Virus record (IMG/VR): IMGVR_UViG_3300012984_000010
DNA: 64,000 bases
Source: a virus
Taxonomy: Duplodnaviria; Caudoviricetes
Direction: 5' to 3' (one strand)
Part shown: positions 12,075 to 54,705 of the stretch, in pieces
Layout: the number at the start of each line of letters is the position of its first letter
Numbering within the stretch: the stretch's first letter is position 1
The notes under the pieces: generated by a model
What the model saw: only the letters and a program-made list of their open reading frames with translations
The model's database searches: none
What the model was told of the DNA's origin: nothing
Translations under genes and position numbers: made by a program

Positions 12075-12920
12075 ATGTCTCGCATCATTTGGTCGACCGA
12101 CACTCATCTCAATTTCCTGAAGTTCCCGAACGGAGCTATGGCTTTCGGTGAGTATTTGCGCAAAGAGCAGCCAGCCGACGCGCTGGTGATCACAGGGGAT
12201 ATCTCGGAAGGGTTAGAGGTAGAACACCATATCAAAGAAGTCCAAAAAGGCTTCGAGAAACCAGTCTACTTCGTACTAGGCAACCACGACTATTACCGTA
12301 GCTCGTTTGCAGAGATTGATCGGAAGATGGCTTCTGTGCCTGGTTGGTTGACCAAGGCTGGAGTGGTCGAAATAGCCGAAGGTGTGGCGTTGGTGGGGAA
12401 TGAGGGTTGGTACGATGGGGAGTTTGGGTACCCCTACGCCAGATTTGGGATGGCAGATTGGTCCCTAATCAGTGAGCTGAAGTCCTACATATCGAGGGAC
12501 GATTTGCTGGCAAAGATTAGGGCTCGTGCGACTGCGGCTGTGTCGGCTGCTTGCGATGTTTTGGAAGAAGCCGTCTCCAAGTATCAGCTGGTACTTTTTG
12601 CCACACATGTCCCTCCTTTCCGAGAGAGTGCTTGGCACGAAGGTCAAATCAGCAACGACACCTACCTACCTTGGTTCAGCAGCAAGAGGATGGGGGACAT
12701 GTTGATGCAGGTGGCGGAGGCTAACCCCACCAAACGTATCCTGGTCCTGTGTGGCCATAGTCACAGCTTCGGAACCTATGATGCAGCCCCTAATCTGAAG
12801 GTTTTGACCGGTAAGGCGATCTATGGGGCTCCCGACTTGGCGGGTATCCTGGAAATACAGGGTGGAAAGATCAACGTCTCGATGCGGGACAATAGCTGGC
12901 TGGATATAGGTGTGTTCTGA
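12075..12920 (+). CDS. Calcineurin-like metallophosphoesterase (CpdA/Icc-like)
   Basis: DTHL, ITGDIS, LGNHDYY, ATHVPP, GHSH. Confidence 0.9.
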   Translation: MSRIIWSTDTHLNFLKFPNGAMAFGEYLRKEQPADALVITGDISEGLEVEHHIKEVQKGFEKPVYFVLGNHDYYRSSFAEIDRKMASVPGWLTKAGVVEIAEGVALVGNEGWYDGEFGYPYARFGMADWSLISELKSYISRDDLLAKIRARATAAVSAACDVLEEAVSKYQLVLFATHVPPFRESAWHEGQISNDTYLPWFSSKRMGDMLMQVAEANPTKRILVLCGHSHSFGTYDAAPNLKVLTGKAIYGAPDLAGILEIQGGKINVSMRDNSWLDIGVF

Positions 12921-13189
12921 AACCGTTAGGCGAACCGGTAGTTATTCCGTATCGCCGTTGGAAGCACAAGACACACGGGTATACGGCAGAAGTGTTGGGA
13001 GTGCACCATCACTTGGGTCAGCATGGGTATTACACGACCGTGACTGTCAAGGGCACACTGCAATCCAAGGTCAAGCAAGCCATATGGTCGGCTAGCAGAT
13101 TCCTCCAGGAATTCAAACCCAGAGGAAAGAAGATCAAACCTGTCTCTCAATGGGGTCATTTGCTGGATGGGTCTTTAGATCTGATCTAA
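12917..13189 (+). CDS. Hypothetical protein (start uncertain)
   Basis: Frame is open from CTG 12917, overlapping the upstream TGA; GTG 12992 is an alternative; ends SQWGHLLDGSLDLI. Confidence 0.55.
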   Translation: MKPLGEPVVIPYRRWKHKTHGYTAEVLGVHHHLGQHGYYTTVTVKGTLQSKVKQAIWSASRFLQEFKPRGKKIKPVSQWGHLLDGSLDLI

Positions 13190-13208
13190 GCTGGCCGTCA
13201 ATCTAGCG

Positions 13209-13331
13209 ATGACCTTTGGAGTATTGGTGATACTGTTCGGAATTTGGCTCCTACGGGCAACCCTAAGAATCAGGGTGCCGAAGAAGCCGACCCTAGGTAG
13301 TGGAAAATCGGCGGAAATTTCACAACACTGA
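13209..13331 (+). CDS. Small membrane protein, 40 aa (not in ORF track)
   Basis: MTFGVLVILFGIWLLRATLRIRVPKK... Confidence 0.5.
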   Translation: MTFGVLVILFGIWLLRATLRIRVPKKPTLGSGKSAEISQH

Positions 13332-13389
13332 TTACGCCTGGCGTCATAATTTGGTTCGATATAGTTTTAGGGTGCCGACCATTTGTAGG

Positions 13390-13707
13390 ATGCACTCACT
13401 CTCGGACTACACTGACGGTAAAGAACCGCTACCTTTCATGGTGGAGCTCTCCAAGAGCATCATCTTGGCGGAGCTCCAGAGTCAGGTTGAGGCCAAGATA
13501 GACCCCGCATCTCTTGCGTACGATACTGACTCATTTGTCTGGGAAGCTGGGCAGATCGTGATGATGCTTACCTTTCGAGATTCCTCGGGTTTTGCACAGG
13601 GTAGGGTCTACATTCAACCTAGCGTGAGTGAGGCTCTCGATGTATGCTTCCTCGTAGATGCCGAGTTCATAGGGTACCTGCCAACACGCAATGAGGGTCT
13701 GAACTGA
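13390..13707 (+). CDS. Hypothetical protein
   Basis: ATG 13390 (MHSLSDY) preferred. Confidence 0.55.
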   Translation: MHSLSDYTDGKEPLPFMVELSKSIILAELQSQVEAKIDPASLAYDTDSFVWEAGQIVMMLTFRDSSGFAQGRVYIQPSVSEALDVCFLVDAEFIGYLPTRNEGLN

Positions 13708-13716
13708 TCGACCAAA

Positions 13717-14163
13717 ATGTCTCCGCTACTACCAATCGAACGCACCTCTGACACCCCGATACGTCCCAAAGACATTGACGGAGATAGTGCCTTCATTGGT
13801 GCCTTCAGGCAAAAAGAGCAAGAGCAGGCCGCCATCTGGATAGTACGCTTCTGTCAGGCCCGCCACAGTTGGAAACCGTTCAAGGTATGCGACCTTGCCA
13901 GTTACTCGATGCTGAATGGTGGGGTTGAGGTCTCTGATATAGAAAAAGTTCTGGCCTTCCTTTCCCTGTTCGAGGGTATCATCGAACAGTTGTCTGATTG
14001 TGGGGTTTTGATTGTGGAGGAAACGGTCACCCTCACTACCGCCTTCGTGGCAAGATGTTATCTGCACGCGCCTGTATTGGGGTTACCGGTCAAGAAAAGA
14101 GTCAGGAAGCCTAAAATAGACACTAGGGTCAGCCGTTATGACCTATTGAAAACATGCTCCTAA
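13717..14163 (+). CDS. Hypothetical protein with C-terminal SRYxLL tag
   Basis: Ends KPKIDTRVSRYDLLKTCS. Confidence 0.7.
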   Translation: MSPLLPIERTSDTPIRPKDIDGDSAFIGAFRQKEQEQAAIWIVRFCQARHSWKPFKVCDLASYSMLNGGVEVSDIEKVLAFLSLFEGIIEQLSDCGVLIVEETVTLTTAFVARCYLHAPVLGLPVKKRVRKPKIDTRVSRYDLLKTCS

Positions 14164-14399
14164 CTTTGCTGACCCTGTTCGCCACCTGGCTCGTCATCCG
14201 CTCTAACCAACTTCATGCCCGAATACCTACCTGTAGGTACCCAGATTTGGGTTCGCTGACTCAGGCGATAGAAGGGCTGGTCGCCGCCTACATGGGTTGT
14301 GCCATCTGCTGTGTGTTCATCCGGCCATGGGGCCTAATATCGGCGGGATGGATTTTGACCTTCGCAGCTATTTGTAAGGTCAGGAGCCTAGCCTCTTAA
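14154..14399 (+). CDS. Hypothetical membrane protein
   Basis: Three hydrophobic segments. Confidence 0.6.
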   Translation: MLLTLLTLFATWLVIRSNQLHARIPTCRYPDLGSLTQAIEGLVAAYMGCAICCVFIRPWGLISAGWILTFAAICKVRSLAS

Positions 14400-14423
14400 C
14401 CTTTTCCAATCCGATCCGTTATA
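14396..14423 (+). promoter_or_regulatory. Class A promoter
   Basis: TTAAC-N15-CCGTTATA-N6-ATG(14430). Confidence 0.8.
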
Positions 14424-14429
14424 GGGGTT

Positions 14430-15257: not shown

Positions 15258-15262
15258 GGCGA

Positions 15263-16910: not shown

Positions 16911-16970
16911 CCTGCAGACGCCCAACAGAGGAGGGCTTTCTCTAGTGACCCCAATCCGGAGTTCTAGAGA

Positions 16971-17425: not shown

Positions 17426-17426
17426 G

Positions 17427-20095: not shown

Positions 20096-20123
20096 TAGAA
20101 CGGAAGACCTGCTGAGGAGTTAA
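20096..20123 (-). promoter_or_regulatory. Class A promoter
   Basis: TTAAC-N15-CCGTTCTA-N6-ATG(20089). Confidence 0.8.
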
Positions 20124-21090: not shown

Positions 21091-21882
21091 TCAGTCCAAA
21101 CCCAAGAATTTCGTGTACCCTGCGTCCGCATATATGAGGTATCCTCGGCCAGAGGTATCACTCACCGCGGGGGTATCGGTACCTGCATCAACGTCTACTG
21201 TGGTGCCGCCACCGCTCTCAACCGGCTCAGAGGCATCGGTTGCAGGAGCACCTGTTATGGTCCAGTTGCCGCCCGTACCACCGTTCACCTCAACATTGGT
21301 CGATGAATCGAGGTCCAACCAATGTAGGTTGGTTCCGGAAGGAGCAATACTTTGACGGGCATTCTGGGAAGCTGTCAAAGCAGCCGCATCACTAATGGTG
21401 GTAGCCTGACACCAAAATCCTTTGACGTTACAATCCGGTTGCTCTTCACCGAATTGGTCATTTCCAATATACAGACCGTACCCCGCACCAGTGAGAGCTG
21501 TAGCACAGTCAATTGAGATTGATGTCCAAGTAGTTACATTCTCTGCCCTGTATCTGAGTGTGTAGACTGTACCTGACCCGCTATACTGCAACACGAAAGC
21601 TCGCCAAGCAGTGTCGGAGCCGCTAACAATCACATGTGTGTCGATACTTCCACCTCCGTTTGCGAAAGTGAATGTTGAAAGATCAGTGCTACCTGATGCA
21701 ACAGCTAGTTGGAAGCCTTGAGAAGCGCCTCCAGTATTACCGAACGCCACAACTGCAGTGTCACCTGCAGGACTATAACCTCCAGTTCTAACTTGTGACC
21801 ACCAACCCATATGATAGGCAGCGTTAAGAGTTGGAAGAGTTGTAGTGCTGAGACCGTCCAGAGTAAATCGTACTGAAGTCAT
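21091..21882 (-). CDS. LamG/concanavalin-A-like beta-sandwich protein (probably virion-associated)
   Basis: Gly/Thr/Ser-rich beta composition, GLYIGNDQFGE, GTNLHWLDLD..TN...GNWT; ATGA start 21882. Confidence 0.6.
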   Translation of the reverse strand: MTSVRFTLDGLSTTTLPTLNAAYHMGWWSQVRTGGYSPAGDTAVVAFGNTGGASQGFQLAVASGSTDLSTFTFANGGGSIDTHVIVSGSDTAWRAFVLQYSGSGTVYTLRYRAENVTTWTSISIDCATALTGAGYGLYIGNDQFGEEQPDCNVKGFWCQATTISDAAALTASQNARQSIAPSGTNLHWLDLDSSTNVEVNGGTGGNWTITGAPATDASEPVESGGGTTVDVDAGTDTPAVSDTSGRGYLIYADAGYTKFLGLD

Positions 21883-22640
21883 GCTAATCCCCAAGCTGAG
21901 AAGGCTGTGGCACTGAAGATCTTCGGATCATCTTGTTGCCCAGGTGAGTTGTTTTCTCGATAGAACCCTATTCCAGGATTCCCTATGCGGTAATATGCAG
22001 ATCGTGCAGGTGTGATTCCTATTTGAGTCACCACACCAGTGGTGGCGCGAACCATCCAAACGGTGACGACTCCTGTTTGAGTCGTGTCGTTAAGAATCAA
22101 TTGAGCACGGAGCTTGTCTCCGTCATGCACTCCGTGACTTTGGAAAGCTGATGAGAACTCGTCTACCGTATCAGTACCGTCGAGAAACCTAGCCACATAT
22201 CCCAGAATCCCGTACTTACCTTGCAACAGATTGATCTCAATTCCGTCAAAGTCAGTGTCGTTATATTTGGCGTCACCAGGATTAGTACCCACGTGACGAA
22301 CGGGTCCGAACTTGGCTCCCAACAGCAATTCAACCTCAAGATCTCCCACTGGAGTGGCAGTTAGCGAGATGGTTAGTTCACAACCGTGGTTATGTGGGAA
22401 CCCACTGAGGAACGCCTGAGAGTCGTTGTAGACTGGAATGAATTTCTCATCTCCCGTTTGGTTTCCCCAGCAAACACCACTCCCTTTCTGACAAGCTGGT
22501 TGATACGGGCTGCCAGTCGTCCAAACTCCGCCTTCAGAAAGCGGGTTTTCAGCCGAACCGCTGAAAGTGGTTGAGTAAGTTGGTAGTGCAACCTGGTCTA
22601 GTGAAGATCGGTGGTTTAGGTCTACATCAATCAGACTCAT
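21879..22640 (-). CDS. Lectin-like beta-sandwich protein, paralog 3 (MSLIDVDLNHRSS)
   Basis: Shared N-terminal peptide and ENPLSEGGVW...PGIGFY; ATGA start 22640. Confidence 0.7.
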   Translation of the reverse strand: MSLIDVDLNHRSSLDQVALPTYSTTFSGSAENPLSEGGVWTTGSPYQPACQKGSGVCWGNQTGDEKFIPVYNDSQAFLSGFPHNHGCELTISLTATPVGDLEVELLLGAKFGPVRHVGTNPGDAKYNDTDFDGIEINLLQGKYGILGYVARFLDGTDTVDEFSSAFQSHGVHDGDKLRAQLILNDTTQTGVVTVWMVRATTGVVTQIGITPARSAYYRIGNPGIGFYRENNSPGQQDDPKIFSATAFSAWGLA

Positions 22641-23386
22641 GGCAACCCCACTGCTGAGAAAGCCGTGATGCAAAACTTCTGACGATCAGAATCAGTCGTG
22701 TTATCCTGGTTGTAAAACCCGATACCTGGTTGACCAATCAGATAAAGAGATGTGTCGGTATGCGAGCCGAAGATGGTCTCGGAGCCACCACGCTTCATCG
22801 AAACGGTGACGGTCCCTGTCAGATCAGTATCGTTAAGCACCAACTGGGCACAGAAGATATCGCCGTCGTTGGGGATACCCCAGGAGGTGCCCGCCGCACT
22901 CAGGTCTAGACCTACGTTGTCGAGGAAACGGTAGATACCTACGAAGATTCCGAATTGTCCAACGGCGAAGTTGCACTCACATACGTTGGTGTGTGTGGGA
23001 CCATAGAACGGCGTCGGGCTTCTGAGGGCCCCCACCGAAGCTCCCAGCAAACACTCAACCTCAAGATCACCACTCCAACTGGCTCCCTTGTGGATGGTGA
23101 TCTCCACTCGTTGGTTACGGCTATAGAAAACATTAGGCGAAAGCCAAGCTTGGGAATCGTTGTACTTCCCTGGAGTGCCGTCAGGTTGTTGGTACTCCAG
23201 CCCTGATTGGGTGTTGAAAGCTAATCCATTTGCAGTCTTAACGACTGTCGATAATGAATCGGCTCCAGTAATCCACGCACCTGACTCAGAGATAGGGTTC
23301 TCTGTAGCACTGAAAGTGGTACTGAAAGTGGTGGGCACCGCATCCAGTGATGACCTGTGATTTAGATCCACGTTAATCAGGCTCAT
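22637..23386 (-). CDS. Lectin-like beta-sandwich protein, paralog 2 (MSLINVDLNHRSS)
   Basis: Shared N-terminal peptide and ENPISESGAW...PGIGFY. Confidence 0.75.
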   Translation of the reverse strand: MSLINVDLNHRSSLDAVPTTFSTTFSATENPISESGAWITGADSLSTVVKTANGLAFNTQSGLEYQQPDGTPGKYNDSQAWLSPNVFYSRNQRVEITIHKGASWSGDLEVECLLGASVGALRSPTPFYGPTHTNVCECNFAVGQFGIFVGIYRFLDNVGLDLSAAGTSWGIPNDGDIFCAQLVLNDTDLTGTVTVSMKRGGSETIFGSHTDTSLYLIGQPGIGFYNQDNTTDSDRQKFCITAFSAVGLP

Positions 23387-24042
23387 AGGGTTGTCGCCTG
23401 GAAGTGGGTGAATCCGTATTTGTTGCCGGCCGGCGATCCCTCAGAATAGAAGCCTATGCCAGGTGCACCACTGGTGAACTGTGTATCAGTTCCGCTAGCG
23501 ATCGGACTACCGTTTAGGTATACGTTGATCGAACTGCCAATGATTGTGGCGCTAAAAATGTCTCCGTCATTGACCCCACCCGATACAGGATTGCCTGAGC
23601 TGACCCATGTGAAGTCGCCCAGAGTGGTGCCTTTGCCAGATGTCGGCCATTTGATGATCTCGGCATACCCACCGTCATGGGCAAGGTTACATTCATATCC
23701 GTAGGAGACATGAGGGCCATCGACCCAACGAAGCAAGATTTCCGTCTCTTGGAAGTTGCTAGTTCCTGATGCCTTGTGGATCGTGACGCTGACCGATTGA
23801 TTGGGCCCGAAGCCCATCCCGGCCAAGATGGCGTATGAGTCATCGAAACCGTTAGTTCCGGCCTGAGTGCCGTACGCAATACCGCCGGACTTGATGACGT
23901 TGGTCCAATCAAGTCCATGGTTCTGCCAGACCCCACTTTCGGACAGCGGGCTTTCCGAGCCAATGAAGTTGGTCGAATAGCTGACAGGCGCTACATAGTC
24001 TGTAGATGACCTGTGGTTAAGGTCTACATTGATCAAGGACAT
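23383..24042 (-). CDS. Lectin-like beta-sandwich protein, paralog 1 (MSLINVDLNHRSS)
   Basis: Shared N-terminal peptide and ESPLSESGVW...GAPGIGFY. Confidence 0.75.
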   Translation of the reverse strand: MSLINVDLNHRSSTDYVAPVSYSTNFIGSESPLSESGVWQNHGLDWTNVIKSGGIAYGTQAGTNGFDDSYAILAGMGFGPNQSVSVTIHKASGTSNFQETEILLRWVDGPHVSYGYECNLAHDGGYAEIIKWPTSGKGTTLGDFTWVSSGNPVSGGVNDGDIFSATIIGSSINVYLNGSPIASGTDTQFTSGAPGIGFYSEGSPAGNKYGFTHFQATTL

Positions 24043-26761: not shown

Positions 26762-27013
26762 TCAACCTCTTTGGCCGAACTCAAACGTAAAAAAGTGGAA
26801 TCCCCACCGCCTAGGTAGCAGCGACCCTGGAACCCGCTTGATCAGTCCAGGCCGGTTACGAAACAGGCCGACAGGGGAAATGTAAGCCCGCCTTCGAAAC
26901 AGGTTCCTGACCTGAGCCTTGAAGATCCACCAAGGACCAATGCGGAAAGGCCAGCAGATAGACCCATCGTCCCGACGTCTGCAGAAGCCGATACGAAGAA
27001 GCAGAGACATCAT
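26762..27013 (-). CDS. Hypothetical Arg/Trp-rich protein
   Basis: ATGA overlap with the upstream stop. Confidence 0.55.
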   Translation of the reverse strand: MMSLLLRIGFCRRRDDGSICWPFRIGPWWIFKAQVRNLFRRRAYISPVGLFRNRPGLIKRVPGSLLPRRWGFHFFTFEFGQRG

Positions 27014-28362
27014 TGATTAGTGTCCTCTTCGTCATCCGCCGAATCGTCTTCGTCTTCCTCCCACCTGCCTTTGATCTTCAACAGCTCGGTGAGGAAGGCG
27101 CGGTGTTCTTTCCAGTTACCTTCTTGGCCGGAGTTGGAGGTGGGGTGCCACTGTCCGTGGATATTGGAGTACGCCCATTGGACGTAGATTGTTTCTGCCA
27201 GATTTCGGACATAATCTCGCAAATCGTCGGGAGAAGTTGAGGTGTCGATCGCGAAACGGAAAGCCTCACGGAAAGAGAATCCAGACACTCCTTCACTGCC
27301 ACGCAAAGAGGCCGCGAAAATGTTCTCACGGGGAGACACGTCGTCGCTTCTTTTAAGGGACAACCTAAACAATCCAGACTCATCGCCCTTGGCCACTAAG
27401 ACCTTCAGTTCTTCTCGGATCGCCAGTTCCTTGTCCAAGGCCGCCACCGCCGACTCCCTGAAACTGTCGATGTTGTAGGAACCCACCCAAGACTTGATGG
27501 GGGTGTTGAGCAAGATTTGCCACACATCCTCACGAATCATCGCTTGGGAGACAGGTCGGGGTTCACGCCAATAGTCCTCGACTTCATGCTGGGTACGGAT
27601 GAATACGTTCGGGTCGGTGCTGGGCAAGGGAGCTACCAGAACCTCAGCCTTGTTGCTGTAGGAGCCTGAACCGGCTGTGAGCATAGCCGCGTACCCTCCC
27701 CCGTGCAGGACCGACAGGATCGATTCCAACCCTTCTTGGACTCCTAGCTCACATCGGCGGATACGGACGAACCCTGTACCCACATCATCGATCAACAGCC
27801 CAGGATCAAAGTTGCCGGCCGACAGCTTTAGGCCAGCATCCGTCAACAGCTTTTCAATACGCTGAAACGTAGGGACCCCCTGTGCCGGCTTGTAGAGGTC
27901 TGGAGTATAGATGGCGGCAAGCCTGGAAGGCTTGCCGGTCAGCTCCTCAAGCTTCTGATCCAGTTCCTTGGCTTCCTTGTACCGGCGGTTCTGAGCTCGA
28001 CTGTCGTCAACTTTTACCCGTCCTTCCCACAAGGCGTTGAGCCAACTATCTTGATCCATGTCGGTTCGGACTGCAGGATCGTGACAAGAATTGTCACCAA
28101 CTCCGATCTCGACCGCAGATAACGCCAAGCCTTCGAAAAACACCCTTGTGGTGAAGGATTGCTCAATCCTCTCTACTGAGCCGTAATCGTTGTACTGACC
28201 CTTGATTGGGACTCCGTGGAGTTGCCAGCGGCCGGTGACGTAGCATTCGTGCCCGTTACCGTCAGGAGAGAAGGCATTCCTGGCAAGGGCTAGGAAGCGG
28301 ACCGGCGTCCCAGCCTCGATCGGAAGATTGGAGACGATGCAGGTGGCGTTGAAAGAACCCAT
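27010..28362 (-). CDS. Hypothetical protein, 450 aa
   Basis: Long ORF; class B motif 9 nt before ATG; MGSFNATC..SNLPI. Confidence 0.8.
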   Translation of the reverse strand: MGSFNATCIVSNLPIEAGTPVRFLALARNAFSPDGNGHECYVTGRWQLHGVPIKGQYNDYGSVERIEQSFTTRVFFEGLALSAVEIGVGDNSCHDPAVRTDMDQDSWLNALWEGRVKVDDSRAQNRRYKEAKELDQKLEELTGKPSRLAAIYTPDLYKPAQGVPTFQRIEKLLTDAGLKLSAGNFDPGLLIDDVGTGFVRIRRCELGVQEGLESILSVLHGGGYAAMLTAGSGSYSNKAEVLVAPLPSTDPNVFIRTQHEVEDYWREPRPVSQAMIREDVWQILLNTPIKSWVGSYNIDSFRESAVAALDKELAIREELKVLVAKGDESGLFRLSLKRSDDVSPRENIFAASLRGSEGVSGFSFREAFRFAIDTSTSPDDLRDYVRNLAETIYVQWAYSNIHGQWHPTSNSGQEGNWKEHRAFLTELLKIKGRWEEDEDDSADDEEDTNQ

Positions 28363-28397: not shown

Positions 28398-29441
28398 ATG
28401 ATCAAATTCATTGTTGATGAGATGGCTAACCAGAAGCGGGCCTCCAAACCCATTTGGAGAGCTGAGAACGGCCTGTCAGTACCCAAGACTATCCAACGAG
28501 TCCTTAGAGGGAATGTGCCTGAGGCGTACGGAGCCAATCTGCCAGATATCATCCCTGCCCGCTCACACGCCTTGATCGAGGCGATGACGCTCGCCTACGA
28601 GGATCACTATCCGCTCGTCTTGAGTCCCGACGATATCTGGATGGTTCTTTCTCAGAGCTTTGCCAAACACGTGGATCAAAACGCCGAGAAGCTTCGCCAC
28701 CAGTTCGTCCAGCATGAAGGAAAGGTGAAGATTGTCTGGCGGAACGATTCCTTGGTCAAAGGATCACCAGACAACAACTGGATGGACGGCTTCCACTTCT
28801 TTGCCGACAAGATCAAAGAACACATCGGTAAGAAACACGACCTGCTGACCGCCAATTTCACCACCTCGGGCCCAATTGAGATTGCTGCTTCTCAGGTGGT
28901 GTTGATGGAAGCGATGAAGCATTACTTCGAGTACGGGGTAATGACCATGTGCGGAATCCCAGAAATCACGCTCCTGGGAGAGACCTCCGATTGGCAGAGC
29001 ATCCGTAATCGTGTACAGACATTTGCCGAATTCAATGGATTGGCTGCGTGGAGCAACCGGTTGGACCCAATCCTGGCTGAGTTCGTCAACGCCTCTCAGG
29101 GAAATATCAACCAAGCCTTTTGGAAGGATATCTACAAGGTAGATCATGCAGGCAGCGGAGGACCAGACATCAGTGGTTGGGCCAACGCATTGTTCCTCTA
29201 CATCGAGAGCTACAGAAGAGGTGTACAACTGAACCCTGTTGCCCTCGATCCTAATTCTGATGATTACCCTAGCTCTGGCATGTACCCCTCCGGCATCTCA
29301 GCTGTGCCGTTCGAATGGGAGTACTACGCTGCGAAGTACGACTACGAATTCCTAGCTGGGTTCGTAGGGATTCACCAAGATCCTGAGACGTTGGCGGTTA
29401 GAGCTGGGCTGGGTTGGGCCGTCCGAGAAGCTGCCAAGTGA
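28398..29441 (+). CDS. DUF4419 family protein
   Basis: AY..HYPLVLSPDDIW....Q.FA.HV..NAEKLR..FV.HEGK, FTT, CGIPEITLLGE..DW. Confidence 0.8.
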   Translation: MIKFIVDEMANQKRASKPIWRAENGLSVPKTIQRVLRGNVPEAYGANLPDIIPARSHALIEAMTLAYEDHYPLVLSPDDIWMVLSQSFAKHVDQNAEKLRHQFVQHEGKVKIVWRNDSLVKGSPDNNWMDGFHFFADKIKEHIGKKHDLLTANFTTSGPIEIAASQVVLMEAMKHYFEYGVMTMCGIPEITLLGETSDWQSIRNRVQTFAEFNGLAAWSNRLDPILAEFVNASQGNINQAFWKDIYKVDHAGSGGPDISGWANALFLYIESYRRGVQLNPVALDPNSDDYPSSGMYPSGISAVPFEWEYYAAKYDYEFLAGFVGIHQDPETLAVRAGLGWAVREAAK

Positions 29442-32297: not shown

Positions 32298-32325
32298 TAG
32301 AACGGATACGTCTTGAGACAATTAA
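32298..32325 (-). promoter_or_regulatory. Class A promoter
   Basis: TTAAT-N15-CCGTTCTA-N7-ATG(32290). Confidence 0.8.
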
Positions 32326-32813
32326 GGGAAAGGTAACAACAAAAGATCGTATCGTGACGATCTCTCCACAGGAACGATCGGCGGCTGTGGAGTAGGTTTC
32401 GACACCCCCTGTTCGGAAATGGGGTAGATGATACTTCCAATGGGAATTTCCATTGAAATAGCTTCTGGGTTGTCGATGAACCGGAAATCGATCATGGCTT
32501 GCCACGTGTGCTGATCTCGCCTTGCCATCCACCCATTGGCAACACAATGTTGCCAATGGTCTGCCCTGGAATTCAGACGGTAGATGGGTGCGCTATCGGG
32601 CGCCATAAGGGCAACCAAATCCCCTAACATGAGAGGAACAGCCCTCATCTCGTCATGGCCTACGATGGTTTGAACAAATATGGTACGTCCCTGTAGGTCG
32701 TGGACTACAAGTGGGCTGTGGACTACAAGTGGGCCGTTAGTGTGTTCCGCCCTTAGACGGATCGACGATATCAGATGCTGGAAGTCCTCATTTCGGATCA
32801 CATAGGACGCCAT
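32322..32813 (-). CDS. Hypothetical protein with C-terminal SRYxLL tag
   Basis: Ends PTPQPPIVPVERSSRYDLLLLPFP; GGTGTC variant motif 8 nt before ATG. Confidence 0.7.
   Translation of the reverse strand: MASYVIRNEDFQHLISSIRLRAEHTNGPLVVHSPLVVHDLQGRTIFVQTIVGHDEMRAVPLMLGDLVALMAPDSAPIYRLNSRADHWQHCVANGWMARRDQHTWQAMIDFRFIDNPEAISMEIPIGSIIYPISEQGVSKPTPQPPIVPVERSSRYDLLLLPFP
32700..32734. repeat. In-frame 18-nt tandem duplication
   Basis: GTGGACTACAAGTGGGC-T-GTGGACTACAAGTGGGC, encoding PLVVHS-PLVVHD on -. Confidence 0.9.
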
Positions 32814-32861: not shown

Positions 32862-33446
32862 TCACATCGAGGCTTGCAAGCTCGCCTTACGGATCCGATC
32901 CATGGCACGGCTGTGCAGCTGGCTGATTCGGGGTTCCGATACCCCCATCTGGAGCGAAAGGTCCTTGAATTTCACGCCTTTCATGTAGTGTTGGGTGATG
33001 ATGTAGCGCTCACGTTCGGGTAGCTGTTCGATCACCTCGGAAATCTGTTCCATCAATGCTTTGAGGTGTAGAGTCTCCTCCGAATGGCCTGCTTCCTGCA
33101 GGCACTTGTTCTGCTCATACTCCGAGACGTCATCGAACCGAACCACAGCAGGCACACTGGAGTTACTGTCGATCGACAAGGCCTTGCGGGCCCGACGGGG
33201 CAACCAGTCCTGGTGCCGTAGCTCGTCCAAGATGGCGCCACGGACGCGAACACGGACGTACCACTCGAAGCCTTCCGCTGGCGTCTGGTCTTGCTTGCGA
33301 ACCGCATCCCACAAGCCACTCATGCCGGCGGCGATCAGGTCTTCGCGAAGGACATGGCAAGGAACCTTGCGTTGGAAGGCCCCCGCTATTTGGCGGACCA
33401 AGGGTTCGTATTGGGCGATCAGAGCTTGATGATTGACGTTTTGCAT
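32862..33446 (-). CDS. RNA polymerase sigma factor, FliA/WhiG (sigma-28) family
   Basis: Y.PLVR.IA, EDLI.AGM.GLWDAV, FEWY...RVRGAILDELR..DWLPR, LPERER.II..HY.....FK.L...MGVSEPRISQLHSRA. Confidence 0.9.
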   Translation of the reverse strand: MQNVNHQALIAQYEPLVRQIAGAFQRKVPCHVLREDLIAAGMSGLWDAVRKQDQTPAEGFEWYVRVRVRGAILDELRHQDWLPRRARKALSIDSNSSVPAVVRFDDVSEYEQNKCLQEAGHSEETLHLKALMEQISEVIEQLPERERYIITQHYMKGVKFKDLSLQMGVSEPRISQLHSRAMDRIRKASLQASM

Positions 33447-33503: not shown

Positions 33504-33531
33504 TAGAACGGAAGCCCTCAGGTTAACTTAA
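33504..33531 (-). promoter_or_regulatory. Class A promoter upstream of the sigma gene
   Basis: TTAAG-N15-CCGTTCTA-N6-ATG(33497, 8-codon uORF MTRRSNEP), about 50 nt before the sigma ATG. Confidence 0.75.
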
Positions 33532-41130: not shown

Positions 41131-41403
41131 ATGATCAGATACTTGATGAGGTTCGAAGATGGTAGGCCGGTTCCAGGGAAGGTGTATAGTGTCCAGATAG
41201 GTAAGATGTACGGCTTCCAATCACGCCATACCGGATACCATGTGGGGGAGCTACAGTACAGCAAGACCCTCCAAGCCTATTTCCTAGACTGTGGTCGAGT
41301 TCATTTCTTCGCTTGGCACAATCCATTGGCTGGAGGGTGGTTGGCAGGAGCCATGTCTCACTGCAGACCTTCACTGACGTTAGGACAACCGAACGAAGGC
41401 TAG
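41131..41403 (+). CDS. Hypothetical protein
   Basis: Class B motif (41117-41122) 8 nt before ATG. Confidence 0.65.
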   Translation: MIRYLMRFEDGRPVPGKVYSVQIGKMYGFQSRHTGYHVGELQYSKTLQAYFLDCGRVHFFAWHNPLAGGWLAGAMSHCRPSLTLGQPNEG

Positions 41404-41765
41404 ATCAGCCTAGTTACTTCTGGGTCTCGATCGTACACCGGAAGCGCCCCCTCAGGCATCTGTTCGATTAGGAAGGTCTTGCGAGCGATACCCACGTAGT
41501 CCCTTCGGTATCTGAGAGGGAAGGCCATCGCCTGTGCCAACTTCCTTCGACCCTCTAGGGTCTTGAGGCGCCTAGCTATCAGTTCTTCTCTGACCCACCG
41601 GTCTACCTTGGGGAGTCTGCCGAACAACAGGAAGACAAGCACCAAGGGTAAGAGACGGAACAGATCCCTTCGTGAGAAGGTGTCGACCTTAACCGAGGGG
41701 GCCGACTGACGGGCTACGAAAGCTTGGACGATGCCCTCGATGGGGAAGTTGGATCTCGACAACAT
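41400..41765 (-). CDS. Twin-Arg/TM leader fused to an N-terminal segment of a major-capsid-like protein
   Basis: SRRDLF plus hydrophobic stretch, then TLEGRRKLAQAMAFPLRYRRDYVGIARKTFLIEQMPEGALPVYDRDPEV. Confidence 0.7.
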   Translation of the reverse strand: MLSRSNFPIEGIVQAFVARQSAPSVKVDTFSRRDLFRLLPLVLVFLLFGRLPKVDRWVREELIARRLKTLEGRRKLAQAMAFPLRYRRDYVGIARKTFLIEQMPEGALPVYDRDPEVTRLI

Positions 41766-41769: not shown

Positions 41770-42186
41770 TTACCAGTCCGGTTTCATCAATGCTTTGGCC
41801 AGTTCTTGCCGGCCTTTTACCGATCTGAGGGCACCTCGAAGCCATTCTTGCTGTGCGGGCGTGAACCCCAGTAGAGCCTTGCCTGATTTCAGACTATCAA
41901 GCTTGATGGTGCAATAGAGGTTGACTTCGTAAGAAGCCCTATTTGGCGAGTAGTATGTCTTGTAGGCGGACCAACCTATCGAACGGTTCCTAGGGTCATC
42001 TGCCGATAGGACGGTCGCCCCTGGATGTTGTTTGACGAAAGTCCGTATCTCCTTGAACACATGGCTGAGGTTACGGCAAGTTGGCAGGGCCTTCTCAGCC
42101 TTAGCTACCGATTCCCGTGGGGCCAGCAGAACCGAGATGAACGGGACACTGGCGAGTATCTTTAGAACAGAACGTCTTGTGGTCAT
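41770..42186 (-). CDS. Putative Tat-exported protein
   Basis: MTTRRSVLKILASVPFISVLLAPRESVAKA-EK (RR motif, h-region, AxA site). Confidence 0.7.
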   Translation of the reverse strand: MTTRRSVLKILASVPFISVLLAPRESVAKAEKALPTCRNLSHVFKEIRTFVKQHPGATVLSADDPRNRSIGWSAYKTYYSPNRASYEVNLYCTIKLDSLKSGKALLGFTPAQQEWLRGALRSVKGRQELAKALMKPDW

Positions 42187-42488
42187 CCGGTCCCCAACTG
42201 GTCCAATGCTTTGAATATCTTGTCGTCCTCAGCCGCTTGGGTCTCCAACCTGGCGACATGATTGCTTCGATCGAGCAACTGGTAACGCCTAGACTTGATA
42301 TCGGTCAAACGGATGGTCGGCATGCTATGAATCTCAAACAGTGGAAACACGACCTGCCGCGCTACCGGCATCCGGACTTTAGGCCTGGGAAGCCAGAGCT
42401 CTACCCAAGCACGGAATGCGGGTATCCCGCCCAGCAGGAGGGCGACAATCGCCAGGGGGAGTAGTTTGAGAAGCTGACGGCGAGACAT
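42183..42488 (-). CDS. Twin-Arg/TM leader fused to a central segment of a major-capsid-like protein
   Basis: MSRRQLLKLLPLAIVALLLGG, then VFPLFEIHSMPTIRLTDIKSRRYQLLDR...ETQAAEDDKIFKALD. Confidence 0.7.
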   Translation of the reverse strand: MSRRQLLKLLPLAIVALLLGGIPAFRAWVELWLPRPKVRMPVARQVVFPLFEIHSMPTIRLTDIKSRRYQLLDRSNHVARLETQAAEDDKIFKALDQLGTG

Positions 42489-42534: not shown

Positions 42535-42729
42535 ATGACCAAACAAGAATTGCTTGAAGCCGCCGCCCTGATCCTAGAACAGGAAGGTTGGGTGATCGAA
42601 CGTTTCGCCTACGAAAATTGCTCTAGCCGATTGAACCACCTTGCCAAACGTTACCGAGATTGGCAGAACCAGGTCAATCAAGCCAGAGCAGAAGGCCAAG
42701 AATGGCCCGTTCCTCCGGACAACAGCTAA
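42535..42729 (+). CDS. Hypothetical protein
   Basis: Class B motif 9 nt before ATG. Confidence 0.7.
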   Translation: MTKQELLEAAALILEQEGWVIERFAYENCSSRLNHLAKRYRDWQNQVNQARAEGQEWPVPPDNS

Positions 42730-43280
42730 GGGAATGGGTCCAGCAGATTGAAGTCTAGGTACATCAGATGGTACCGTTCCTCAGATGAGTACCTGACCAG
42801 TGTCTTCATCCCCAACAGGCTGACCCTAAGTCCTTCAGGCGAAGGTTCGATCAAGCCATTCTCCAGCAGAGTCTCTTGGGCCATCTCAAAGAGAATATGG
42901 GCTTTTTCCGCCGCCTCTTTGCTGACCATCCGACCTTGGTTTTCAATCATCAGGTCGAACAGTCTCCAGCTACCCCACTTCATCTGAACTCGGTGCCAGG
43001 TTGCCCCAATTGCTCGTTCACTGATGTTGGTCCGGCGGCTACCGTCCATAGCGTCCATCCAAATGCCGGCTCTGGGGTCGTAGCCGGTACATCGATACTG
43101 GACATCTTCAAACACTGCGTTGAACCGTTGTCCCAGCAAACTCTTGATCCATTCGCTGGGTTGGTACATTTCAGTGCCGGTGTAATCTACCCCATTAGGG
43201 TGATCGGAACACGGCTCTTTGGCCGATTCAGATTGGCAGTAACGACAATCTTTGGAGCGGCGGGGGATCTGGTTTTGCAT
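42726..43280 (-). CDS. Hypothetical protein, possible C-terminal winged helix
   Basis: Class A promoter 7 nt before ATG 43280; LLENGLIEPS..GLRVSLLG. Confidence 0.7.
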   Translation of the reverse strand: MQNQIPRRSKDCRYCQSESAKEPCSDHPNGVDYTGTEMYQPSEWIKSLLGQRFNAVFEDVQYRCTGYDPRAGIWMDAMDGSRRTNISERAIGATWHRVQMKWGSWRLFDLMIENQGRMVSKEAAEKAHILFEMAQETLLENGLIEPSPEGLRVSLLGMKTLVRYSSEERYHLMYLDFNLLDPFP

Positions 43281-43287
43281 CACCCAT

Positions 43288-43315: not shown

Positions 43316-43563
43316 GACGTTCTTATAGTGCAGGCGTGGGGACCGGTCAGATACTGGTCACAACCAGAACAAGGTGTGTAGGTCCCTTTTCGTTGAGTCA
43401 ATACGGTCAGCTGATGAGTGGTGACGTCGTAGTGGAGGCCCAAATCCTTCATCAGAAGGTTTTGGATCACGTCCCCCAAAGAGGATTCGTCAATCGTCAG
43501 CTGCTCAGAACGCTGGGAAGCGTCTTCCAGATTCACAATATTGATCAGCATGCGTCCTCTCAT
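43312..43563 (-). CDS. Hypothetical protein
   Basis: TAATG coupling; C-terminal CSGC...H.C. Confidence 0.6.
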   Translation of the reverse strand: MRGRMLINIVNLEDASQRSEQLTIDESSLGDVIQNLLMKDLGLHYDVTTHQLTVLTQRKGTYTPCSGCDQYLTGPHACTIRTS

Positions 43564-43781
43564 TATAGGCCTATATCTTGCAATAAGGCTTGGTAGCTGC
43601 TGAGGCGTTCGGAGGTGTCCTCACCCTTCACCGTCTGGGTGAGGAGCTCAACCTTTATTGTGGTGGGCCCGGTGACGTTTTGGAGCGTGATCGTCAGATT
43701 ATCCCCCATCTGCGTCAGCATGACAGGATCATGTACCCTTGTCCCTAAACCATCCGGCGTGGTGACCTGGATCTTGACCAT
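43563..43781 (-). CDS. Hypothetical protein with C-terminal SSYxxLL tag
   Basis: Ends ERLSSYQALLQDIGL; class B motif (43792-43797) 10 nt before ATG. Confidence 0.7.
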   Translation of the reverse strand: MVKIQVTTPDGLGTRVHDPVMLTQMGDNLTITLQNVTGPTTIKVELLTQTVKGEDTSERLSSYQALLQDIGL

Positions 43782-43799: not shown

Positions 43800-44066
43800 C
43801 TACTCGACGAACTTAGGTAAACTCTGAAGCGCCTCCTGAAGGCCTTTTGTTGAGAGGGAACGGGTCAGCATTGCTGCCGCATCCTTCCCATCTTTGATGA
43901 CCGTGGTCCAACCGCCCAAAATAGGGTGGCGCAATTGGACCACGTATTGGTCAGACTCAGCCAAACATCGCAGGCGGAAAACCCCCACCGTCAACTCCCA
44001 AACGGTCTTGCGAGCAACTTCCTGCCGGCCCTTCACTCGGGCCTGGACGTCCTTGTCCTGGCTCAT
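43800..44066 (-). CDS. Hypothetical protein
   Basis: TGATG coupling. Confidence 0.65.
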   Translation of the reverse strand: MSQDKDVQARVKGRQEVARKTVWELTVGVFRLRCLAESDQYVVQLRHPILGGWTTVIKDGKDAAAMLTRSLSTKGLQEALQSLPKFVE

Positions 44067-44431
44067 CAGAGGTCGAAGGTTCGGCAGCCGTACAGCTCAT
44101 AGAGTGCTTGCTCGGCTGGTGAATTGGGTTCCACCACCAGCACATTGTTGAGCTGATGACGGATGCGTCGGAGCTTCTCGGAATACCAATTGCACCAGAC
44201 CTTGATCTCGTACGGCGGCTCAACGAGATCGGCTGCGATCCGTTCGGCCTTGTCCTGATCTGGACCGCTGTAGACGATGAAATCCTGGGATGTGTAGGAG
44301 GCGGTGTCCCGAGTGTTGACGTCGAGATTGAGCACCACCCGATGGTTACCTTTTTGCCGGCCCAGGGCGGTATTTTGGCTTGGGAGAGTCTCGACCTTTG
44401 TTTTGACTTTTGTTCCGATCGTCTTGTCCAT
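44066..44431 (-). CDS. Hypothetical protein
   Basis: Start revised to ATG 44431 (MDKTIG) using the class A promoter. Confidence 0.7.
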   Translation of the reverse strand: MDKTIGTKVKTKVETLPSQNTALGRQKGNHRVVLNLDVNTRDTASYTSQDFIVYSGPDQDKAERIAADLVEPPYEIKVWCNWYSEKLRRIRHQLNNVLVVEPNSPAEQALYELYGCRTFDL

Positions 44432-44436
44432 GCCTA

Positions 44437-44464
44437 CCAAACGGCCGGCGAGGATCGGGGTTAA
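44437..44464 (-). promoter_or_regulatory. Class A promoter (variant)
   Basis: TTAAC-N15-CCGTTTGG-N5-ATG(44431). Confidence 0.65.
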
Positions 44465-44467: not shown

Positions 44468-44662
44468 CTATAGATTAAGATCTTCGAGCAAGGCTTCGTA
44501 ACGAGACTTTCTGACGGGAGCTGGCAACCTCACGACGATTGTGTGTGGGTGCTGCATCAAAGCTCCGTGCCGGTTAGGAGGGTCTCCTCTCCTTCGGCTT
44601 TGAAGCCAGGCCTGCTCCCTCTGATGTTCGAATTCCATCAGATCGATCATATTGAACGGCAT
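44468..44662 (-). CDS. Small protein with C-terminal SRYxxLL tag
   Basis: Ends LPAPVRKSRYEALLEDLNL. Confidence 0.7.
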   Translation of the reverse strand: MPFNMIDLMEFEHQREQAWLQSRRRGDPPNRHGALMQHPHTIVVRLPAPVRKSRYEALLEDLNL

Positions 44663-45390: not shown

Positions 45391-45801
45391 TTAGCCCTTT
45401 ATTGGGTCGTAGTCGAGGTGTTCCCGAAACGACGTTCGCCTCACAACAGAAGATACGGGTACGGTAGGCACCTGGAACATGAACGGGCTACAGGTCTGAA
45501 AGTCGACTAGTTCGGAAGGAAAAGAGTCTGGCACCACTCCCACACGATCTTGCGGTACTTTAACTGATTTCAGTACGTTAGCTCCCCACAGATGTCCTTC
45601 AAAGTACCCGCCGCTACGACTGTTCTGAAAACTAATCGCCTGCGTCAATTCCCCGACCGCATTATGATCGAAATAAACGGACGCCTTTAGAATTCTGAAC
45701 TGAATCGGATGCAACCAGATACAGCCAATCTTAAGATCAGTTAGGTCGAATTGATGGAACAGCTCGCTAAGACGTTGGATCAGAGGGCTTTCATCCGGCA
45801 C
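45391..45801 (-). CDS. C-terminal-half (A-domain-like) segment of a major-capsid-like protein
   Basis: LSELFHQFDLTDLKIGCIWLHP...GYFEGHLWGANVLKSVKVPQDRVGVV; class B motif (45810-45815) 8 nt before GTG 45801. Confidence 0.6.
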   Translation of the reverse strand: MPDESPLIQRLSELFHQFDLTDLKIGCIWLHPIQFRILKASVYFDHNAVGELTQAISFQNSRSGGYFEGHLWGANVLKSVKVPQDRVGVVPDSFPSELVDFQTCSPFMFQVPTVPVSSVVRRTSFREHLDYDPIKG

Positions 45802-45808
45802 CCCTTCT

Positions 45809-46030
45809 CTACACCTCACGCCGCTTCTTCATATTCCGATCACGGCTGGCATCCGCCATAGGAGAGGAGGTACCTAGCTTGCTCTCCCAACGAAGCAGCT
45901 CCTTCACTGCCGGTCCAATCTGACCTTTCTCGGTCACGAAGTCCTGGGACCTCACCGAGCCGTCCAGATTGAGGACACGTATTCCCCAACCTCGGCCTAA
46001 GAAGGTCACCTTTGTTTTGAGAGTCTCCAT
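45809..46030 (-). CDS. Hypothetical protein
   Basis: Class A variant promoter 6 nt before ATG. Confidence 0.7.
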   Translation of the reverse strand: METLKTKVTFLGRGWGIRVLNLDGSVRSQDFVTEKGQIGPAVKELLRWESKLGTSSPMADASRDRNMKKRREV

Positions 46031-47655: not shown

Positions 47656-47683
47656 TAGAACGGATGTCCGGTCTAGAGGTTAA
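47656..47683 (-). promoter_or_regulatory. Class A promoter
   Basis: TTAAC-N15-CCGTTCTA-N5-ATG(47650). Confidence 0.8.
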
Positions 47684-49469: not shown

Positions 49470-49478
49470 CGGTTGTAC

Positions 49479-49496: not shown

Positions 49497-49506
49497 TTGA
49501 TACATC

Positions 49507-50195: not shown

Positions 50196-50199
50196 TAGG

Positions 50200-50643: not shown

Positions 50644-50659
50644 CCCCCTCATTACACCG

Positions 50660-52618: not shown

Positions 52619-52771
52619 CCATCAAGAATGGCCAAAAGAACAATAGGGCTCTAAGACCCACATGTAGGCGAACAGCTCCGAGCTGAGATATGACCCCAGC
52701 ACCTCCAAGACCAGTCGGTCTCCGGATACATCCGTGTGTTCTCCTTAAACTATCGGAGCTGTTCTGCACTA

Positions 52772-52799
52772 TAGAACGGTTGGAGACTGGGAACCTTAA
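52772..52799 (-). promoter_or_regulatory. Class A promoter
   Basis: TTAAG-N15-CCGTTCTA; no ATG at +6; about 150 nt upstream of the fibre-like gene. Confidence 0.7.
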
Positions 52800-53248
52800 G
52801 GCCAATCGTCCAACAAAAGGGCATAGCGTGAAACTCGCCCAGAAGGTATTAGAGGCACTACCTCACCCTTTTTCTGGACAATCAGCACCTTGGCGGGAAC
52901 AAAGACGATGTGGGCGCCCCCAGGCATGTAGTGGAAACCTATCATAGATTGCCACGTCGTCCTAGTTCTTCGGGCAATTGAGCCGCCCTGTAGCAGCCGT
53001 CCCAAGAACTCTACGTCTTCGATCACGATCTGAGGTCCAAAGTCGGGCACCATCTCAGCCACCCAATCCCCTGGGAACAGCCCAATGCTCAGACCGGTGC
53101 AATCCTGAGACAAAATGGAACTAAGACCGCCAGGGGACAGATCGTTCACTACATGAACTCTATGTCCCCCTGATTGTTCGCGGACCTCCAGTCTGCCGGC
53201 ATCCCCCAACCGGTTGAAAGTCTCCTGTGTCAGGATGTGACTCGCCAC
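52796..53248 (-). CDS. Hypothetical protein, paralog of 53771-54526, with SRYxLL tag
   Basis: Start revised to GTG 53248 (ASHILTQETFNRL); ends GRVSRYALLLDDWP. Confidence 0.75.
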   Translation of the reverse strand: MASHILTQETFNRLGDAGRLEVREQSGGHRVHVVNDLSPGGLSSILSQDCTGLSIGLFPGDWVAEMVPDFGPQIVIEDVEFLGRLLQGGSIARRTRTTWQSMIGFHYMPGGAHIVFVPAKVLIVQKKGEVVPLIPSGRVSRYALLLDDWP

Positions 53249-53249
53249 G

Positions 53250-53564
53250 TCAAATCTCGATGCCCAACAGCTTACAAGCTGCCTGGGCCATCCAACCCCC
53301 ACTGTTGGGTTCCATCTTGCCTCGGGCGATAGCGAGCACCATGGCGGATTCGAGACTGTCACAACTGTTGTTGGTCGTCTTCCCATCCACATAAACGTGA
53401 AAAGAAGGCTGGTCGTCGAATTCACTCTCTTTTTCGTAGTTCTTCTTGAGGTACTCGACGAACGTGTACCGGCCGAGGTCATGGATCTGGACGACCTGAC
53501 CCCAAGTGAAGCGGCGCGGGTCTTTACGAATCGTTTCCAGTTCGGTGGTGGTTTGAATGCGCAT
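53250..53564 (-). CDS. Hypothetical protein
   Basis: TGATG coupling gives start MRIQTT at 53564. Confidence 0.7.
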   Translation of the reverse strand: MRIQTTTELETIRKDPRRFTWGQVVQIHDLGRYTFVEYLKKNYEKESEFDDQPSFHVYVDGKTTNNSCDSLESAMVLAIARGKMEPNSGGWMAQAACKLLGIEI

Positions 53565-53740
53565 CAGAATGCCCCCTTGATTCGAATGGCCAAGACGATT
53601 GCTCCAACGATCATCGTCCAACCAGCTCCACAGAGCAACATACCCCAGATCAAGCCTCGGGCGGCCGGACCGGGGTTATCGAGAACCAAATATTTGTGAG
53701 CACCGTCAGGATCTTCGCGCACCAGATTGATATTGGTCAT
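53564..53740 (-). CDS. Small membrane protein
   Basis: C-terminal TM segment; ATG 53740 is 6 nt after the class A promoter. Confidence 0.7.
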   Translation of the reverse strand: MTNINLVREDPDGAHKYLVLDNPGPAARGLIWGMLLCGAGWTMIVGAIVLAIRIKGAF

Positions 53741-53746
53741 GTTCAT

Positions 53747-53774
53747 TGGAACGGATCCAAGAATTGGAAGTTAA
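53747..53774 (-). promoter_or_regulatory. Class A promoter
   Basis: TTAAC-N15-CCGTTCCA-N6-ATG(53740). Confidence 0.75.
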
Positions 53775-54526
53775 GGCCAATCGTCTAGCAGGAGTTCGTA
53801 TCGGGATCGTTTGGGGGGAGGCGTTTCGGGATCGAGGACCTTTTGGCCAACCATCAGCTGCTCAAGATTCTGCTGAGACTGCTCCCATTCCCCAGTCAGT
53901 TGCTCTGAAAAGGCTGCATCTCGTGCTGCTCGCTCGGCATCTACAAAGATGTCAAGCCATTGTGGTGAATCATCAGTAGGTTCGGAACTGTCGACCGGAA
54001 TTTGAATCAGCTGATTGGCCAGTCTATCTTGGTGTGAGGCCAACACATCTTCGAAAGCCTGCCAAGTCGAGTATTGTTCGGGACGTGGTGCCAACTCACC
54101 ATGTCTTCGCCGCAACTGAGCCTCTCGCCGCACAGCGATCTGTGTTACGGTCAGACCTCCGGTCCTAAGAATCGTATTGGGGCGAACCCTGATTTCGGTT
54201 CCATTGGCCAGCTCTGGCGAGAACGAGCATTCGATGAGGGCCTGCCACGTATCGTGGCTTCTGGGAGCTATAGTGCCCGTCTGAAGGGCCGTAGCCCACG
54301 CACGCCACTCTGGGTCTATACGGACGATATCAGCGTCCTCAGGGGCGGCTATGGCGACCCAATCGCCTGGCAGGAGGGCGTGATGCCCCCAGTCTCTAGG
54401 ATCTCGCACCCAGGCAGTGGATTGATGTCCTCCCACTACCCAAACCCCTCTAATACGATCCAGTCTCAACAATCCCTGTCTCAGCAGTTGATTGAACGAC
54501 TCCTGGTCCAGGATGTGTGAGGCCAT
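53771..54526 (-). CDS. Hypothetical protein, paralog of 52796-53248, with SRYxLL tag
   Basis: MASHILDQESFNQL...; ends PPPKRSRYELLLDDWP. Confidence 0.75.
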   Translation of the reverse strand: MASHILDQESFNQLLRQGLLRLDRIRGVWVVGGHQSTAWVRDPRDWGHHALLPGDWVAIAAPEDADIVRIDPEWRAWATALQTGTIAPRSHDTWQALIECSFSPELANGTEIRVRPNTILRTGGLTVTQIAVRREAQLRRRHGELAPRPEQYSTWQAFEDVLASHQDRLANQLIQIPVDSSEPTDDSPQWLDIFVDAERAARDAAFSEQLTGEWEQSQQNLEQLMVGQKVLDPETPPPKRSRYELLLDDWP

Positions 54527-54705
54527 CAGAGGAACTGTTCCAACAGGAGATCGTAACTTGAACGTCTCACAATCTCAACCGGCCGTCCTTCCCCGAATAA
54601 TTTTTCGACAATCCTGATATGCACTTGCCAATCCTCCACCCATTGGCGCTGTTGGTCAGTCATTCCAGGCCCCGCATCTTGGGCTCTGACGATTGTCTCG
54701 GGCAT
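54526..54705 (-). CDS. Small protein, 59 aa, with SSYxLL tag (not in ORF track)
   Basis: SD GGAGG; MPETIVRAQDAG...VEIVRRSSYDLLLEQFL; TGATG coupling to the next gene. Confidence 0.7.
   Translation of the reverse strand: MPETIVRAQDAGPGMTDQQRQWVEDWQVHIRIVEKLFGEGRPVEIVRRSSYDLLLEQFL

Follow-up and report, generated by a model that had tools for sequence, protein, structure and literature searches.

A C-terminal tag shared by seven phage proteins

A 64,000-nucleotide stretch of DNA from a soil phage (IMG/VR record IMGVR_UViG_3300012984_000010; hereafter, the window) encodes seven small proteins that end in the same short peptide, with the consensus R-x-S-[R/S]-Y-[D/E/Q/A]-[L/A]-L-L-x-x-hydrophobic. 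This tag is strongly enriched at the C-terminus, is selected at the protein level, is portable between unrelated protein bodies, and has a form specific to its lineage. It appears to be the local variant of a wider class of C-terminal tags found in huge phages. Our preferred reading, to which we assign a probability of roughly 55%, is that the tag is a portable docking peptide bound by one common, co-evolving reader, the window form being the local version of the class.

A first-pass annotation of the sequence had quoted seven C-termini with this motif, and all seven were present exactly as quoted. Its expectation that the motif would be enriched at C-termini relative to internal positions and shuffled controls was also borne out. 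When S[RS]Y..LL was searched in the six-frame translation, six open reading frames (ORFs) were recovered, each with the motif 4-5 residues before the stop codon, and no internal match was found. The seventh copy (SRYDLLK) was likewise C-terminal. From residue composition, 0.059 matches were expected in 20,272 residues, and 2000 protein shuffles gave a mean of 0.05 matches overall and 0.003 within six residues of the end. In an unbiased scan of spaced triplets over the last 14 residues, Y..LL, RY..L, R.S.Y, and SRY were the most enriched patterns in the window. Counting from the aromatic residue, Ser(-2), Tyr(0), and Leu(+3) were invariant in the seven tags, and the residues after the conserved core varied (DDWP, LPFP, EQFL, DLNL, DIGL, and KTCS). 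A matrix built from the seven tags gave 31.8 bits, compared with 6.0 bits for the next best ORF; as this matrix is overfitted, the gap mainly shows the absence of an eighth clear copy.

Codon usage within the tags supported the earlier proposal that selection acts on the protein. Among identical tag residues in non-paralogous pairs of carriers, the same codon was used in only 32 of 102 cases (31%). The differing codons indicate that the conservation lies in the protein and not in a DNA element.

We numbered the carriers t1 to t7 by position. The weakest of the seven tags is that of t1 (13717-14163, plus strand; 148 amino acids [aa], ending in TRVSRYDLLKTCS), in which Lys replaces the third Leu and the acidic tail is absent (SRYDLLKTCS). 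The remaining carriers are on the minus strand. Among these, t3 (43563-43781; 72 aa) ends in RLSSYQALLQDIGL, t4 (44468-44662; 64 aa) ends in RKSRYEALLEDLNL and terminates at a TAG stop codon, and t7 (54526-54705; 59 aa) ends in RRSSYDLLLEQFL, is preceded by a GGAGG ribosome-binding site, and has a stop codon that overlaps the start of t6. The TAG of t4 is in frame with the next gene (44066-44440, minus strand), and readthrough would fuse both proteins and bury the tag. The other three carriers are paralogues of one another: t2 (32322-32813; 163 aa, ending in ERSSRYDLLLLPFP), which lies directly downstream of a sigma-70-like gene (32862-33446); t5 (52796-53248; 150 aa from a GTG at 53248, ending in RVSRYALLLDDWP), whose longest ORF extends to 53482; and t6 (53771-54526; 251 aa, ending in KRSRYELLLDDWP), which has a helical insert of ~100 residues ahead of the tag.

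The bodies of t2, t5, and t6 are 30-37% identical, yet their tags are nearly invariant. Since these three form one paralogue family and the other four carriers are mutually unrelated, the tag is found on five independent bodies. The first-pass annotation had recognized one paralogue pair where there are three paralogous carriers, and was right that the remaining bodies are unrelated. Its description of a Pro-rich linker before the tag applies clearly to four of the seven carriers.

Public gene calls include all seven carriers (t1 to t7), and searches against Pfam and PHROG assigned no family to any of them. A full HMMER profile search with the t2/t5/t6 family found no relatives among 1.84 billion representative proteins. 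Word-based and HMMER searches for carrier homologues returned the window's own proteins only, two further weak matches being spurious. The carrier genes are small, belong to densely arranged operons, and in several cases are coupled in translation. As the carriers are internal to their operons, a promoter-class analysis failed to separate them from other genes. They span 13.7-54.7 kb, and no further carrier was found in the 9.7 kb past the window end; the ~74 kb covered does not show the tag to be "phage-wide", as the earlier description had it.

Beyond the seven, three weaker candidates were considered. Two of these had been listed as weaker matches before, and neither scored with the overfitted seven-tag matrix. 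The first (45391-45819, minus strand; 142 aa) is nonetheless a possible divergent carrier, in that its RRTSF... tail, RRTSFREHLDYDPIKG, resembles a form found in a relative, RRTSFEVIWDDDF of contig G002. The second (12992-13189, plus strand; ending in VSQWGHLLDGSLDLI) is a weak candidate that fits the loose class described below (S-x-W...LL-D), not the window's own motif. A third gene (42726-43283, minus strand; 185 aa, ending in ERYHLMYLDFNLLDPFP) may be another divergent carrier when compared by eye with t2 (...SRYDLLLLPFP), a resemblance that is not significant.

Sister tags in related huge phages

The window is part of an uncultured huge soil phage, and database entries for its carrier proteins come from contigs as long as 475,623 bp. 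The same DNA is present in the Joint Genome Institute (JGI) soil metagenome 3300012988. The terminase-ATPase-like protein of the window shares 37% identity with that of LR745208.1 (485 kb) and 41-44% with its counterparts on 234-350-kb contigs in IMG/VR. This protein (8207-9457, plus strand) matches its relatives only in the ATPase part (approximately residues 59-346 of 416); its neighbours are accessory genes, and it may be a truncated additional copy of the terminase. Among the related contigs, G002 (350 kb) and G004 (275 kb) are ~95% identical in their core proteins, and G003 (251 kb) is ~50% identical to both. Contigs G001-G004 are 49-73% complete, and G005 is 252 kb long.

The exact motif of the window was not found in G002, G003, or G004, each of which has a sister motif at its protein ends. 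In G002 and G004, this motif is [R/K/P]-T-[A/V/S]-[W/F]-[D/E]-x-[L/I/V/M] followed by acidic residues, as in PTAWEQLLIDDDFD, RRTSFEVIWDDDF, and KTAWDYLEEDL. The corresponding motifs are T-[A/V]-Y-D-[L/H]-[L/I/V] in G003 and T-A-W-[E/D]-R-L-[L/I/M]-x-D-D in G005. All can be written as one wider class, [S/T]-x-[W/Y/F]-[D/E]-x-L-hydrophobic and then acidic residues near the C-terminus. We counted stop-proximal matches to this class without gene calling, with the reversed sequence as a control. The counts were 17 versus 2 in G002, 16 versus 2 in G004, 11 versus 0 in G005, 5 versus 1 in G006, and 4 versus 1 in G003. The class was not enriched in LR745208.1 (5 versus 5) or in Tunturi_5, a cultured Tunturiibacter phage (3 versus 3). 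For the lineage-specific motifs, terminal matches compared with those expected from internal frequency numbered 10 versus 0.06 in G004, 6 versus 0.18 in G002, and 3 versus 0 in G003.

The aromatic residue was characteristic of each lineage. It was Tyr in 7/7 carriers of the window and in 4/4 of G003, and Trp (33), Phe (9), or Tyr (2) across G002, G004, and G005. The use of one aromatic residue per lineage across carriers is as a single co-evolving reader predicts. The carriers in the relatives were also unannotated, with the exception of an RlaP-type nucleotidyltransferase of G002 that ends in ...TVWEQL. Carrier genes of the relatives are grouped in accessory islands, such as one at 227-248 kb of G004, where ~12 of the 45 genes encode carriers. 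The ending ...DDDF is found on some tags of the relatives. In IMG/VR, searching the relatives with a profile of the tag alone gave no match, and a scan with the tag pattern matched 111 stretches, none of which was confirmed.

The tag as a proposed docking peptide

A docking peptide with one co-evolving reader would be expected to be terminal and portable among unrelated bodies, to follow a variable linker, and to be uniform within a genome but shifted between lineages, and the tag shows these three features. From the sequences, we infer a helix, its binding, and a single reader. S/T-x-x-D/E is the classical helix N-capping box, and Ser(-2) with the acidic residue at +1 may form such a box. In a helix of two turns, the contact face would then consist of Tyr(0), Leu(+3), Leu(+4), and the hydrophobic residue at +7, and acidic residues would follow it. 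The reader would probably have a hydrophobic groove with a basic rim, and would thereby treat five unrelated orphan families as one group. Reader and tag may have drifted together within each lineage of huge soil phages.

Several points weigh against this reading. No reader was identified. The AlphaFold2 model of t6 was poor (mean predicted local distance difference test score [pLDDT] of 44) and shows just a five-residue helix in the tag (residues 242-246), and the hydrophobic moment of the tags was no higher than that of shuffled tags. Approximately 74 kb of the ~476-kb genome was read, in which there were just seven carriers, three of them paralogues. LR745208.1, which is a relative by the terminase and head-protein measure, is without the tag. 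We found no orthologue pair in which the tag switches in step, the carriers of different lineages being unrelated proteins. A truncated terminase-like gene (41-44% identity) and fragments of a head protein are the basis for placing the window with respect to the contigs that bear tags. Finally, the tag systems could be homologous or convergent, common ancestry being drawn from likeness alone.

The closest published analogue is in phage T4, in which gp43, gp55, and gp33 bind the sliding clamp through interchangeable hydrophobic-acidic C-termini on divergent flexible linkers (PMC2988020). The first-pass annotation had cited these three proteins as a precedent; the parallel is right in kind, but the order of residues differs from the (S/T)LDFL that it quoted, as the window motif, S-[RS]-Y-[DEQA]-[LA]-L-L, has the aromatic residue ahead of the acidic one. 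The T4 clamp epitopes, including the RB69 polymerase C-terminal peptide on gp45, and the window tag have in common a short hydrophobic-acidic C-terminal peptide, a divergent linker, and unrelated bodies. The T4 epitopes are interchangeable and read by one hub, as the window tag would be; T4 has three carriers of known function, compared with seven orphans in the window and 10-17 carriers per genome in the relatives. Membership of the T4 family fails on the motif order, and a clamp was not detected in the partial contigs G001-G004; the likeness to the T4 tails would be one of mode of action, not of family. The bacterial beta-clamp-binding motif (QL[SD]LF, QLxLxL) is not matched either, as the window tag has no conserved Gln.

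Search for the proposed reader

The earlier proposal that the motif addresses cargo to one hub is partly supported by the portable, docking-type build of the tag and its lineage-fixed form; the hub itself was not identified. The sliding clamp families PF02916 (T4-type) and PF00712 (beta) were not found in the partial contigs G001-G004. When DnaB proteins of the relatives were used as queries for the phage's own replisome, none of the best 120 of 527 matches was on the window's contigs. The carriers t5-t7 have a neighbour of 652 aa with relatives at 39-78% identity, and no tag was found in the neighbourhoods of those relatives (L025-L027).

Four other candidates were rejected as the hub by their distribution. 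ThiF was found only in G002, and a ClpP-like protein only in G003. A 450-aa protein of the window (27010-28362) is also present in the tag-less LR745208.1. DUF4419 (28398-29441) lies beside carriers in the window, G003, and G004, but was not found in G001, G002, or G005-G008; it was likewise not found in the two tag-less genomes, LR745208.1 and Tunturi_5. By distribution among G002-G004, ~47 genes fit as candidates for the reader.

A hub of the DNA or RNA machinery of the infected cell, as in T4 or T7, is a possible but doubtful identity for the reader, and the same can be said of a procapsid or scaffold, which would amount to cargo loading. A protease adaptor and a host protein are each a less likely identity.

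Alternative explanations

The tag could be a cargo-loading signal that binds the procapsid interior, scaffold, or portal, so that the carriers are packed in the head and injected with the DNA. Such a signal would act like the cargo-loading peptides of encapsulins or the T4 capsid-targeting sequence. Encapsulin cargo peptides and the encapsulation peptides of bacterial microcompartments (PduP, PduD, EutC, and CcmN) are likewise portable, terminal, and placed after a poorly conserved linker, and they address unrelated cargo to one protein shell; the terminal position of the window tag after a flexible linker would fit this use. The gene order also offers some support. The carriers t5-t7 are directly upstream of the 652-aa protein in the same orientation, and relatives of this protein lie among fibre-like and collagen-repeat proteins. 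The genes around t3 and t4 are made up of fragments of the major head protein. However, the carriers are in accessory regions and not in a head module. Among the 134 window proteins, no encapsulin or microcompartment shell family of Pfam was found. The known peptides differ from the tag. Those of microcompartments and encapsulins are longer amphipathic helices or are Gly/Leu-rich and basic, whereas the tag is acidic. The T4 capsid-targeting sequence (IPI-III and Alt) similarly directs unrelated accessory proteins to one destination by a shared short tag, but it is N-terminal and removed by the prohead protease, whereas the window tag is C-terminal and has no evident cleavage site. Overall, we consider cargo loading unlikely, though worth keeping in view.

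A second explanation with similarly low odds is that the tag is a replisome or transcription docking tail, which binds a polymerase, helicase, clamp, or RNA polymerase in the manner of the tails that bind the clamp in T4, or of the acidic tails with an aromatic tip by which T7 gp2.5 and gp4 dock on T7 DNA polymerase. The hydrophobic-acidic C-terminal build on a variable linker is that of the T4 tails (PMC2988020). With the T7 tails and the tip of SSB (DDDIPF), the tag shares an acidic run, an aromatic or hydrophobic residue near the free end, and a disordered linker before it; the ...DDDF endings in some relatives point the same way, and the relatives encode a T7-like set of a family A polymerase, a DnaB-like helicase, and a primase. 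Unlike in those tails, the conserved core of the tag is the upstream S-x-Y-D/E-x-L-L, the tips vary, and no carrier belongs to an SSB or helicase family. Gene position is similarly divided. The replication module of G004 and G002 has three carriers inserted in it and includes the order SNF2-type helicase, carrier, loader-like protein, DnaB-like helicase, carrier, primase zinc finger, and family A polymerase, but the corresponding modules of nine other relatives lack these insertions, and the conserved replication proteins have no tag. In the window, t2 follows the sigma-70-like gene, but the sigma-like protein itself is untagged and the carriers are not near replication genes. The failure to find the beta-clamp and T4-clamp families in the four partial relatives may also count against a clamp-based tail.

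It is rather improbable that the tag is a degron like the C-terminal signals of the ssrA or MuA type, through which a protease or adaptor of the phage or host would remove a set of accessory proteins at a given time. C-terminal degrons typically have such an extreme position and such a mixed hydrophobic make-up, the carriers are small orphans of a kind with early and brief action, and one relative has a ClpP-like gene. However, the last 3-5 residues of the tag vary, whereas a degron that is recognized by its free end usually has a constant sequence at that end, and no protease with a matching distribution was found, the ClpP-like gene being confined to G003.

Least probable is that there is no common reader and the tag is either a self-acting peptide (for example, a membrane-binding or self-associating helix) or a functionless 3' module spread by recombination. 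No partner was found, 3/7 carriers are paralogous, and terminal amphipathic helices, such as those of MinD and FtsA, need no protein reader to bind membranes. On the other side, the differing codons show that the tags are not recent copies, the invariant Ser and Tyr with acidic residues are unlike basic membrane-targeting helices, the tags have no increased amphipathic moment, and unrelated carriers of one lineage keep the same aromatic residue.

Other features of the window

Few of the 134 window proteins have a Pfam family; those that do include NADAR, RNA ligase, dUTPase, HD, a sigma-70-like factor, a 2OG-Fe(II) oxygenase, and DUF4419. Four genes on the minus strand carry pieces of the 293-aa major head protein of the relatives (phrog_2522). 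These pieces correspond to residues 4-72 (41400-41765), 255-274 (41770-42186), 87-142 (42183-42488), and 168-232 (45391-45819). Three of the four genes have the piece behind a signal- or membrane-anchor-like leader, and t3 and t4 lie between these genes.

The box TCCGTTCTA occurs 5-7 nt upstream of many minus-strand starts (e.g. 9895-9903, 20096-20104, 33504-33512, and 47656-47664). With at most one mismatch, 43 matches were found in the window compared with 11.4 expected, and the box is a predicted promoter or translation signal. Three tandem paralogues of 219-264 aa with 33-42% identity are located at 21879-24042 on the minus strand. ARAGORN detected a tRNA-Tyr with the unusual anticodon ATA and a tRNA-Leu(TAA), at 62281-62349 and 63249-63322 on the minus strand.

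Two other kinds of C-terminal ending were observed. The DnaB-like helicases of the huge-phage group at loci L105-L113 (~11400-11480 in each locus) have a conserved acidic-hydrophobic tail, G-M-G-V-E-E-H-x-x-V-L-D-A-M-x-x-L, which recalls the polymerase-docking tail of T7 gp4. The proteins at 57841-58113 and 60664-60954 (minus strand) and at 9468-9770 of L025 have in common the ending ...Y-x-x-x-A-x-E-L-[G/L]-[V/G], and may form a small paralogue family. A further ending that was looked for, V..V[MQH][ED]S, did not occur in any genome covered by the analysis.

Implications for huge phages

If the tag is a docking peptide with a common reader, it may be part of a larger, undescribed addressing system. 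We suggest, tentatively and at less than even odds, that a single reader, which evolves jointly with a short C-terminal helix, brings dozens of rapidly changing orphan proteins to a common destination. The system would exist in versions such as S-R-Y-D-L-L-L in the window and T-A-W-E-R-L-L or T-A-Y-D-x-L elsewhere. The destination could be the head, for co-injection, or an assembly built by the phage in the cell, and new genes would join the tagged set just by gaining the tail. Were the tagged proteins sent to the virion or to a compartment made by the phage, the tag would amount to a protein-sorting system of bacterial viruses; full-text literature searches aimed at such a system found none described.

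The lineage versions, with Tyr or Trp as the aromatic residue and R/S or A/V ahead of it, would provide natural specificity swaps for the co-evolution of the reader. A synthetic peptide of 12-14 residues could serve as bait for the reader, and reporters could be fitted with the tag. Most genes of huge phages have no known function, and a shared address label would sort such orphans into one functional set.

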